Sequence record: NC_018855.1
Source of the DNA: Escherichia phage HX01
DNA: 64,000 nt
Strand: one strand, 5' to 3'
Every line of letters begins with the position of its first letter. Positions within the stretch are counted from its first letter, which is position 1. Positions 8,314-11,227 of this stretch are shown in pieces. A model generated the notes under the pieces. The model had not been told where the DNA came from. It worked only from the letters and a program-made list of their open reading frames with translations, and did no database searches. The position numbers were made by a program, and so were the translations under genes.

Positions 8314-8761
8314 GAAAAATAAAGTGAAAGAACTATCAGCCGGTATTATTTTCCTTACCGAAGATAAAGAATTATTCATGGGGCGTGTAACTGGTTCTCG
8401 TCCTAAAGGTTCTTTAGCTCATCGGTGGGATATTCCTAAAGGTCGTGTCGAGCCCGGTGAATCTCCTATCGAAGCCGCTATTCGTGAATGCGAAGAAGAA
8501 ACTGGGTTTACACAATATGACCCTGCCTTCCTGAAAGACCTAGGTGAACATCATTACTCAGACAATAAGAATATTCACCTGTTCCTATATACCATCCCTG
8601 TAGAGCACGAGCAATTCAGAAATAGTGTTTGTAATTCCTATCATACATTCCCAGACGGACGTCAGATTCCTGAATTTGATGCATTCGCTTTAATTAAACC
8701 TTCTCAATGGGAATATGTAATGGGCAAATCATTATATAAGGTGCTCACTACCCTCCTATAA
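8303..8761 (+). CDS. nudE: Nudix hydrolase (T4 NudE / e.1-like)
   Basis: Nudix box GRVEPGESPIEAAIRECEEETG; lies just upstream of lysozyme as in T4; start trimmed to ATG 8303. Confidence 0.8.
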   Translation: MMSKKNKVKELSAGIIFLTEDKELFMGRVTGSRPKGSLAHRWDIPKGRVEPGESPIEAAIRECEEETGFTQYDPAFLKDLGEHHYSDNKNIHLFLYTIPVEHEQFRNSVCNSYHTFPDGRQIPEFDAFALIKPSQWEYVMGKSLYKVLTTLL

Positions 8762-8795
8762 GTAATAAATACCTCCTATAAACGTGGGAGGTATT
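8757..8795 (+). promoter_or_regulatory. late-promoter-like element plus hairpin covering the lysozyme ribosome-binding site
   Basis: AATAAATA 8764-8771 (one mismatch to TATAAATA); 9-bp inverted repeat AATACCTCC 8768-8776 / GGAGGTATT 8787-8795. Confidence 0.5.
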
Positions 8796-9284
8796 ATGAA
8801 TATATTTGAAATGCTTCGTAATGACGAAGGTCTTAGACTGACTTTATACAAAGACACTGAAGGCTTTTGGACGATTGGCATAGGCCATTTAGTAACAAAG
8901 AACCCATCTTTAGCCGTAGCTAAAGCTGAACTTGACAGAATGATCGGCCGTAAATGCAACGGTACAATTACCCTTGATGAGGCTGAAAAGCTATTTAATG
9001 AAGACGTTGATAAAGCCGTTCGCGGAATCTTGGGTAATGCTAAACTTAAACCGGTATACGATTCTTTAGATGCGGTTCGTCGTTGTGCATTGGTCAATAT
9101 GGTCTTCCAAATGGGTGTAGCAGGCGTCGCCGGTTTTACTAATTCTCTTCGTATGCTTCAACAGAAACGTTGGGACGAAGCGGCAGTAAATCTAGCCCAA
9201 TCTAAATGGTATCGTCAGACACCCAATCGCGCGAAACGCGTAATATCAACATTTAAAACAGGAACTTGGAAAGCGTATATATGA
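8796..9284 (+). CDS. e: lysozyme (endolysin), T4 e homolog
   Basis: MNIFEMLR...DEAEKLF...[41 protein letters not shown] matches T4 lysozyme from memory. Confidence 0.95.
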
Positions 9285-9549
9285 AAACATATAGTGAATT
9301 TTTATCAGAATCTATTCTTAACGAAGCTACTGACACATTTGCAACTAAGTTAGGTGCAGCTTTGGTTGAAGCCGAAAGTCTATTAGCACGTATTTTAAGA
9401 TAGATACTCGCAAATTTGAACGTACCAGTGATATCGTTAAGCTTGAAGCCTTGTTGCGTATGTGTGATAAACCGGAAGAAATCGCTAAGAACGGCTCGCT
9501 GATGAAACAACGTCTTGAAAAATATATTTCAGGCGCTTCAGAAAAATAG
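9281..9549 (+). pseudogene. frame-disrupted internal-protein-like gene
   Basis: ATG 9281 (ATGA overlap with e) encodes [10 protein letters not shown]... for 40 codons to TAG 9401-9403; coding-like sequence continues in the +2 frame to TAG 9547-9549. Confidence 0.45.
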
Positions 9550-9550
9550 T

Positions 9551-9605
9551 GTTTACTTCCTCCAAGGGTTTTGATACTATACATTCATCAACTACTTGGA
9601 GGAAA
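9551..9605 (+). promoter_or_regulatory. early promoter with inverted repeat covering the denV ribosome-binding site
   Basis: GTTTAC 9551-9556; perfect 10-bp inverted repeat TTCCTCCAAG 9557-9566 / CTTGGAGGAA 9595-9604. Confidence 0.55.
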
Positions 9606-9607
9606 TT

Positions 9608-10021
9608 ATGACTCGTATCAATTTAACACTTGTTTCTGAACTGACCGACCAACATCTTATGGCTGAGTATCGTGAATTACCACGCGTATTTGGTGCAGTC
9701 CGTAAACATGTTCAAAACGGTAAACGTGTAAAGGATTTTAAAATCTCCCCGACATTTATCTTAGGCACAGGTCATGTAACATTCTTTTACGACAAACTCG
9801 AATTTTTACGTTTACGTCAAATCGAGCTAATCGCTGAATGCTTGAAACGTGGTTTCAAAATCAAGGACACGACTGTCCAAGATATTTCCGACATCCCTGC
9901 CGAATTTCGTAATAATTATGTCCCGACCGAAGCGTCCATTGCGATAAGTCAAGCTCGTTTAGATGAAAAAATTGCTCAACGTCCTACTTGGTACAAATAC
10001 TATGGTAAATCAATTTACTAA
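9608..10021 (+). CDS. denV: endonuclease V, pyrimidine-dimer DNA glycosylase
   Basis: [34 protein letters not shown]... matches T4 DenV from memory; ORF track start trimmed. Confidence 0.93.
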
Positions 10022-10112: not shown

Positions 10113-10415
10113 ATGAAAACATATCAAGAATTTATTACTGAAGCGCGAGTGAGTGCAGGTAAATTAGAAGCCGCTATAAATAAAAAGGCCCATTCATTTC
10201 ACGATTTGTCCGATAAAGACCGTAAGAAACTTGTAAGCCTTTATATTGACAAAGAGCGTATTCTCGCTCTTCCTGGCGCTAATGAAGGTAAACAGGCCAA
10301 GCCTTTGAATGCTGTTGAAAAGAAAATTGATAACTTTGCTTCTAAATTCGGTATGTCTATGGATGACCTTCAGCAAGCGGCTATCGAAGCAGCTAAAGTA
10401 ATTAAAGGTAAATAA
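10113..10415 (+). CDS. ipII: internal protein II-like
   Basis: 100 aa, N-terminus MKTYQEFITEARVSA (capsid-targeting-like). Confidence 0.65.
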   Translation: MKTYQEFITEARVSAGKLEAAINKKAHSFHDLSDKDRKKLVSLYIDKERILALPGANEGKQAKPLNAVEKKIDNFASKFGMSMDDLQQAAIEAAKVIKGK

Positions 10416-10417
10416 CA

Positions 10418-10450
10418 GTTTACTTTCTCCTAGAATTGTGATAGTATAAT
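10418..10450 (+). promoter_or_regulatory. early promoter
   Basis: GTTTAC 10418-10423, TATAAT 10445-10450. Confidence 0.45.
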
Positions 10451-10472
10451 CATAATTACTTGGAGAGGTAAA

Positions 10473-10546
10473 ATGACTCGATGAAAAAATTTTAATGAAG
10501 CCACACTGGTATAAGTATTAAGGCAAAAATATTTACATTCAAATAA
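10473..10546 (+). pseudogene. remnant of a denV-like gene (start fused to 3' end)
   Basis: ATG-ACT-CGA (MTR, as denV start) then TGA; following sequence reads DEKILMKPHWYKY*GKNIY, paralleling the denV C-terminus [19 protein letters not shown]. Confidence 0.4.
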
Positions 10547-10687
10547 CATGGGAACAAGCTGGACCTCATGATTCTATGAGGGATTCCCGCCAACCTGTAA
10601 TAAGGTCGAGTCCAAGTGCGGTAATGGGTAAATACAGAAATGGACAATTCATGTGCCATGGAATGGCCCAAACTTAGAGAGAACAAA

Positions 10688-11227
10688 ATGAAAACATTTT
10701 TAACTGGACCTTATCTATCCCTGATGAATGCTTTTACACACCATTCTGATGCTAGAGTAGAAGAAATTTGTAAGAACGGTTATGTCCCACCATTTGAAGA
10801 CATACTCAAGCAGTACTGTACACTTCGTTTAGACGGTGGCAGACAATCAGGTAAATCCACTGCAGTAACTAATTTTGCTGCTAATTGGCTGCACGACGAT
10901 GGAACAGTTATTGTTCTTTCTAATACTTCAGCTTATGCTAAAATTTCTGCTGGCAACATTAAAAAAGAATTTTCTCGTTATTCTAGCGACGATATTCGAT
11001 TCCGTTTATTTACTGATTCTGTCCGTAGTTTTATTGGCAATGAAGGTTCTAAATTCCGTGGATTAACGCTTTCTCGTATTCTGTATATAATTGACGAGCC
11101 TATTAAAGCTCCTGATATGGATAAGATTTACAACATACATATTAAAACAGTCCAACACTGTTGCAAAAGCAAATATTGCATCAGTGGTATTGCTCGTCCT
11201 CAATTTTTTGTGATTGGAATGCAATGA
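10688..11227 (+). CDS. P-loop protein (Walker A GGRQSGKST), function unknown
   Basis: ORF track 10640..11227; ATG 10688 after SD AGAGAGAA. Confidence 0.55.
   Translation: MKTFLTGPYLSLMNAFTHHSDARVEEICKNGYVPPFEDILKQYCTLRLDGGRQSGKSTAVTNFAANWLHDDGTVIVLSNTSAYAKISAGNIKKEFSRYSSDDIRFRLFTDSVRSFIGNEGSKFRGLTLSRILYIIDEPIKAPDMDKIYNIHIKTVQHCCKSKYCISGIARPQFFVIGMQ

Follow-up and report, generated by a model that had tools for sequence, protein, structure and literature searches.

The region downstream of the lysozyme gene of Escherichia phage HX01 very probably carries a natural null allele, namely a pseudogene, of an internal head protein gene of the Ip5 family, in which a 13-bp deletion splits a 93-codon gene between two reading frames. 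The window, as we call the whole stretch of DNA analysed here, comprises 64,000 nucleotides of record NC_018855.1. The region belongs to a T4-like genome, HX01 being a Mosigvirus. The same deletion is carried by other, diverged genomes, the intact alleles of the gene are constrained at the protein level, and the gene has been disrupted independently in other genomes. The feature is a pseudogene of an ordinary kind, belonging to a known family and located in a known variable region.

Organisation of the Locus

The features of the region are listed in Table 1. An initial annotation had placed a frame-disrupted internal protein gene between lysozyme and denV, and the matches of the flanking products to the Pfam families Phage_lysozyme and Pyr_excise confirm this position. 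The start codon of the Ip5-like gene (ATG, 9281-9283) overlaps the TGA stop codon of gene e as ATGA, an arrangement from which the two genes are probably co-transcribed and translationally coupled. With regard to denV, a promoter is annotated in phage Lutter at the position homologous to the promoter-like element present in the window, which was itself missed by a simple sigma-70 scan. With an early-type promoter of its own, denV need not be subject to polarity from a nonsense codon upstream.

On the 5' side of gene e, the sequence CCTCC-tataaacgt-GGGAGG (within 8757-8800) could form a hairpin over the ribosome-binding site, and a late-promoter-like AATAAATA is found at 8764. We take this arrangement to resemble the known one in T4, where translation of gene e is under early/late control.

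Table 1. Features of the Ip5-like locus and its neighbours in the window.
Feature	Position	Strand	Evidence or remarks
Nudix hydrolase gene, nudE-like	ends 8761	+	
Gene e (T4-type endolysin)	8796-9284	+	Pfam Phage_lysozyme, E 7.5e-14; 83% identity to T4 gpe
Ip5-like gene, 5' fragment	9281-9403	+	40 codons + TAG; phrog_3499 positions 1-38, E 3.8e-17
CTS-like propeptide of the Ip5-like gene	9281-9310	+	Y4, F7, L8, E10; cleavage motif L-x-E
Second L-x-E site (L-N-E), residues 13-15	9317-9325	+	Family-invariant alignment columns
Deletion junction	between 9395 and 9396	+	13 bp, CTGAACTTGCTAG, absent; alignments to HMD-9, Lutter, RB69, BYEP02
Ip5-like gene, 3' remnant	9397-9549	+	Codons 44-93 + TAG, +2 frame relative to ATG 9281
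T4 early-promoter-like element before denV	9551-9580	+	GTTTAC, 18 nt, TACTAT; read from the sequence
denV (pyrimidine dimer glycosylase), intact	9608-10021	+	Pfam Pyr_excise, E 3.3e-14; 91% identity to T4 DenV
ipII homologue, intact	10113-10415	+	100 aa, MKTYQEFITE...; 93% identity to T4 IPII; phrog_7857, E 4.5e-55

Two Reading Frames and a 13-bp Deletion

As described in the initial annotation, the frame opened by ATG 9281 runs for 40 codons, up to a TAG at 9401-9403, and coding-like sequence then extends, in the +2 frame, as far as 9549. This second frame, taken from 9283, is open from about 9367, reads ...KIDTRKFERTSDIVKLEALLRMCDKPEEIAKNGSLMKQRLEKYISGASEK and ends with the TAG at 9547-9549. 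The ORF listing gives a 40-aa and a 32-aa ORF at the disrupted gene. When the commonest intact allele of the Ip5-like gene was used as a tblastn query, residues 1-38 and 44-93 of the 93-aa protein matched positions 9281-9394 and 9397-9546, respectively, with 100% identity in two frames (E 5e-42); such a match of an intact protein to both halves lies far beyond chance.

A megablast search with positions 9200-9650 (451 bp) against 50,697 phage records returned 257 matching records, the best of which span 464-465 bp against the 451 bp of the query. In phages HMD-9 and Lutter, the locus is occupied by one 282-bp gene, whose 93-aa product is annotated 'internal head protein'. Alignment with these two phages revealed a single clean 13-bp gap in the window as the only length difference within the gene, besides which there are only 3-4 substitutions (3-4/269). 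The single-base indel initially suspected is therefore to be replaced by a 13-bp deletion. The missing bases correspond to codons S39-E-L-A-S43 plus one base, and the frame changes because 13 bp (3 x 4 + 1) were lost. In the 5' fragment, codons 1-38 are ancestral, while L and R at codons 39-40, like the stop, result from out-of-frame reading caused by the deletion. The 3' remnant has its first own start only at TTG 9451 or ATG 9460, and is devoid of a targeting sequence. Residues 39-43 (SELAS) are the only ones gone from two halves that otherwise encode the consensus, and the deletion cuts into the RISELA motif, which is kept even in relatives at 44-60% identity.

With a 76-bp query spanning the junction, all of the 237 matching phage records (237/237) span 89 bp, and none of them shares the deletion junction; looking up the exact junction sequence in IMG/VR likewise gave no match. 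Neither direct repeats nor microhomology were found at the deletion end points in the intact allele.

Assignment to the Ip5 Family

By sequence comparison, the disrupted gene is an internal head protein gene of the Ip5 family. The protein of an intact relative aligns from end to end with the profile of phrog_3499, the PHROG labelled 'internal head protein' (positions 1-85 of 85, E 1.2e-46), which bears out the initial description of one frame-disrupted gene of the internal-protein class. T2 Ip5 (BBC14757.1) belongs to the same PHROG and shares 48% identity over 84 residues (E 5e-23); both the phrog_3499 and the T2 Ip5 full-length matches are obtained with the intact orthologue. RefSeq gives the name 'ip5' to the VR20 orthologue, which lies at the same locus. 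The family owes its 'internal head protein' label to the N-terminal motif, and literature searches for ip5 function or virion proteomics yielded nothing specific. The family is narrow, given that a HMMER search run exhaustively over 1.84 billion representatives retrieved only four genuine small relatives, which are 44-97% identical and of which one is truncated (49 aa); further matches in the same scan were weak and coiled-coil-like. Neither the intact protein nor the fragment had a meaningful match in Pfam or NCBIfam. In a PDB-wide phmmer search, which includes the solved IPI* structure, the best hit was a chance match (E 0.75). AlphaFold2, run with a 4-sequence alignment, produced a low-confidence three-helix model (pLDDT 68, pTM 0.35).

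In T4, residues Y4 and F7 of the capsid-targeting sequence (CTS) matter for targeting, whereas position 8 (L/I) and E10 matter for processing by gp21 (PMC9026906). The N-terminus of the Ip5-like gene in the window displays a CTS of about 10 residues with Y4 and F7, and a gp21 site of the L/I-x-E type in the form of L8-S9-E10. All four experimentally important residues (PMC9026906) are thus kept, in agreement with the capsid-targeting-like N-terminus initially recognised. L13-N14-E15 is invariant in all aligned members, including the VR20 clade and RB69, which are devoid of LSE. The complete mature domain is absent in the window, where the ORF ends after 40 codons and residues 44-93 lie in the other frame.

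The T2 protein, along with ip5-annotated genes of T-even phages, is among the closest known systems with which the intact product can be compared. The T2 and Ip5-like proteins have in common a MKT(Y/F)xEF N-terminus, three motifs (KLGxAL.EAE, RI.ELA and EIAKNGS) and, in their first 15 residues, an L/I-x-E site. However, T2 ip5 has 84 codons and is located in the polymorphic ipI locus (57B-ipI-tRNA), between 57B and ip7, whereas the family copy considered here has 93 codons when intact, is frame-disrupted in the window, and lies between e and denV instead of in the ipI locus (57B ... tRNA genes). From these comparisons, the gene in the window is a second-locus member of the Ip5 family, next to e. 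With regard to T4 IPII and IPIII, the likeness consists of the propeptide (7/10 residues identical to MKTYQEFIAE, as read from T4 record NC_000866, with all four critical positions kept), the small size, and the location in the e-ip-denV cluster. Past the propeptide, nothing similar remains, and the mature part of the Ip5-like protein has a nearly neutral pI of 6.3, against a basic pI of 9.7 for IPII and IPIII. The clusters also differ in that ipIII-ipII lie between e and denV in T4, whereas in the window the Ip5-like gene precedes denV and ipII follows it.

To our knowledge, an anti-restriction function has been proven for IPI* only among the internal proteins. T4 IPI*, once injected, inhibits the type IV restriction enzyme GmrSD, and it adopts an alpha/beta fold (PMC3012670). 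By analogy, the Ip5-like protein is presumed to resemble it in its CTS, packaging and injection (PMC3012670), but the two have no detectable sequence relation, and the Ip5-like protein is predicted, with low confidence, to be all-helical. The anti-restriction role evoked in the initial annotation draws no support from these comparisons, since there is no detectable similarity to IPI* or to any solved structure and the mature part is near neutral.

Constraint on the Intact Gene and Recurrent Breakage

The intact alleles of HMD-9 and of locus L006 differ by 14 synonymous and no nonsynonymous changes. Among intact alleles, dN/dS ranges from 0 to 0.16, the values against VR20, the most distant clade, being 0.10-0.16. 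Such low ratios show purifying selection, and a gene that is clearly functional in the relatives. The commonest intact allele was found on 541 contigs. With regard to the window, all three substitutions in the Ip5-like gene relative to HMD-9 are synonymous in the ancestral frame, and since neither half carries an amino-acid change compared with the common intact allele, the sequence suggests an allele that is young or recently recombined. That the halves are unchanged fits a recent inactivation, and it would fit as well if the sequence were still in some use.

Independent breakages of the gene occur elsewhere too. In phage BYEP02, 77 bp of its 5' part are duplicated in tandem, one T of the TTT run exactly at the start of the 13-bp deletion is missing on a contig of run ERR12248100, phage F25 shows a frameshift at the C-terminal end, and in an ENA contig the gene is split into ORFs at yet another place. 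This pattern fits an easily lost, dispensable accessory gene.

The RB69 orthologue (RB69ORF127c; NC_004928, 4923-5204, minus strand) contains compensated indels of -1 and +1 nt, 21 nt apart, which rewrite propeptide residues 5-12 (MKTYMNFYQNLS...); Y4, F7 and the LNE site are retained. These indels could be real or could reflect sequencing error in an early assembly.

At least four or five independent disruptions in a gene of 282 bp, together with the persistence of the 13-bp allele in lineages diverged by about 2-6%, raise the question of whether the loss was adaptive, the injected Ip5-like protein being costly or sensed by a host defence and null alleles being repeatedly selected. This proposal deals with why the gene was lost, and can stand beside the pseudogene explanation. 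We nevertheless consider it rather unlikely, since by far the most alleles are intact and under strong constraint, some of the disruptions seen on a single contig may stem from misassembly, and we know of no defence system that senses Ip5. In its more specific form, in which the Ip5-like protein is a trigger of E. coli defence, the null alleles are escape mutants and the recurrent loss is not neutral, the one observation pointing to it is the recurrence of knock-outs, and we regard this form as improbable. Should the recurrent knock-outs have been selected, a host factor interacting with an injected phage protein would be implied. On laboratory hosts, T4 can do without any single one of its internal proteins (PMC9026906), so that neutral loss on a permissive host suffices.

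Authenticity of the Deletion

The initial annotation held a sequencing error to be equally possible. An artefact of sequencing or assembly, with a true phage gene of 93 intact codons, could be suspected from the short T run (TTT/TTTT) that adjoins the lesion, and from the junction being found in no record of the phage collection or IMG/VR. However, the loss of 13 bp is unlike a homopolymer-type error, and the same junction recurs in three further assemblies, which were made independently and belong to at least two accession series. Three Logan contigs (runs ERR1823958, ERR1823956 and ERR2204080) encode exactly the 40-aa product, and their 13-bp gap is identical to that of the window. These contigs share 94% identity with the window across 2.5 kb, with 5/269 differences in the Ip5-like gene, 13/485 in e and 10/414 in denV, e and denV together being about 2.5% diverged. 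They differ in SNPs, and one also differs in neighbouring genes: contig L011 harbours two added genes (84 and 104 aa, with CTS-like N-termini) between denV and ipII, which are absent from the window. Because the same 13-bp loss occurs in four assemblies of diverged genomes, the deletion is a genuine circulating allele, and a sequencing error is effectively excluded.

With the deletion accepted as real, the broken gene might still be expressed by recoding, a -1 shift or reinitiation near AUU-UUA-AGA-UAG producing a near-full-length, functional protein without SELAS. The amino acids of both halves are perfectly conserved, and the deletion made a U-rich stretch right before the stop codon; translational oddities, such as the bypass in gene 60, are known in T4-like phages. 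However, no in-frame slippery heptamer (X XXY YYZ) is present in ...CGU AUU UUA AGA UAG..., and the 96 nt around and downstream of this site fold no better than shuffled sequences (z +0.71). The AGA preceding the stop is not a hungry codon, since the phage encodes the tRNA-Arg(TCT) serving it (73-149). In addition, the allele derives from the ordinary single-frame gene of the relatives examined, and the recoded product would miss part of the conserved RISELA motif. The deletion alleles of the ERR contigs also carry one replacement, R82C, downstream in the 3' part, which occurs in no intact allele. Taken on these points, recoding is most unlikely.

As for two truly separate small genes, a reading to which the two listed ORFs and the RefSeq annotation of the 40-aa one as a protein might lend themselves, the chance is negligible, since in the relatives examined in detail the locus is a single unbroken 93-aa ORF under purifying selection, and the second ORF begins only at a TTG well within the conserved region and has neither a ribosome-binding site nor stand-alone relatives.

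Proposed Fate of the Intact and Truncated Products

The preferred explanation remains that of a natural null allele, and what the intact and broken genes would do can be outlined on the model of T4 (PMC3012670, PMC9026906). We infer that the intact protein is packaged, cleaved and injected, and that the truncated form no longer functions. The intact 93-aa protein would be made late, from the gene directly 3' of the endolysin gene. Its N-terminal CTS would dock it onto the scaffold core of the prohead, where the prohead protease gp21 would trim it after L-x-E, at E10 or E15, and the remaining helical protein of about 9 kDa would be packaged with the DNA and then injected. In the window, the loss of codons 39-43 and one base shifts the frame and brings in a TAG two codons on, so that no more than two products can be made. 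The first product would be a 40-residue peptide that keeps the targeting and cleavage signals and is possibly incorporated; once processed, it would be reduced to an acidic stump of about 25-30 residues, devoid of the conserved RISELA, KPEEIAKNGS and KQRLE motifs, and probably lost or inert. The second product would consist, at best, of traces of an untargeted C-terminal fragment.

The 40-aa product is identical to RefSeq YP_010246909.1, 'internal head protein [Escherichia phage HX01]'. This entry is the stump of a 93-aa gene and merits a pseudogene flag. The gene, for a putative packaged protein, is dispensable, and gene decay is ordinary here in T4-like genomes; the allele adds one example, and support from natural populations, to the long-known plasticity of T-even internal-protein genes. 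Outside annotation hygiene, its significance is slight.

A Variable Internal-Protein Cluster around denV

The internal-protein loci of T-even phages have been described as hyperplastic, CTS-bearing genes being gained, lost and shuffled in a cassette-like way (Repoila et al. 1994, as cited in PMC3012670). The change in the window differs from such replacements in being an in-place frameshift. The set of internal-protein genes around denV differs among the window, contig L011, HMD-9, Lutter, RB69 and T4. The order is e-ipIII-ipII-denV in T4, and e-ip5like-denV-ipII in the window, with the Ip5-like gene broken. In HMD-9 and Lutter, it is e-ip5like-denV-84aa IP-...-ipIII, and in RB69, e-ip5like-denV-IP-.... 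A tblastn search with T4 IPIII found no ipIII homologue within the 64-kb window, whereas HMD-9 and Lutter have one after denV. A sharp mosaic boundary was observed between e and the Ip5-like gene. Compared with HMD-9 and Lutter, e of the window differs at 95/485 nt (20%) and the Ip5-like gene at about 1%, which indicates a mosaic junction and an exchange of the Ip5-like gene between Mosigvirus and Tequatrovirus.

Several minor observations concern the neighbouring genes. In Lutter, the gene for the 84-aa internal head protein that follows denV (L002, 2349-2604) is annotated as two overlapping CDS, and as one in HMD-9. In the window, positions 10415-10540, between ipII and the vs.8 homologue, contain a second copy of the denV promoter, Shine-Dalgarno sequence and ATGAC start, joined to what is left of a denV 3' end (T4 DenV residues 118-137 matching 10477-10536, 70% identity, E 7e-5). 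This segment has the appearance of a degraded second denV, placed as in T4-type genomes (ipII-denV-vs.8), and a longer remnant of a second denV is present on contig L011. In the vs.8 homologue, a T4-type N-terminal stretch of 33-41 codons (10576-10677, ending with TAG) is out of frame with the body of the gene (from ATG 10688 to 11227), an offset due to an 8-nt length difference from T4. This may represent a second frame disruption, or merely reflect another true start, RB69 vs.8 being also annotated short.

Further upstream, just 3' of the tRNA-Arg(TCT) gene, a 208-aa ORF (889-1515, + strand) begins with MYTFNEFLAE, a CTS-like start with L-x-E, and has a Pro/Lys/Ala-rich middle part. It matches phrog_2280 ('unknown function', E 1e-57), and its product is, from these sequence features, probably another head-packaged protein.
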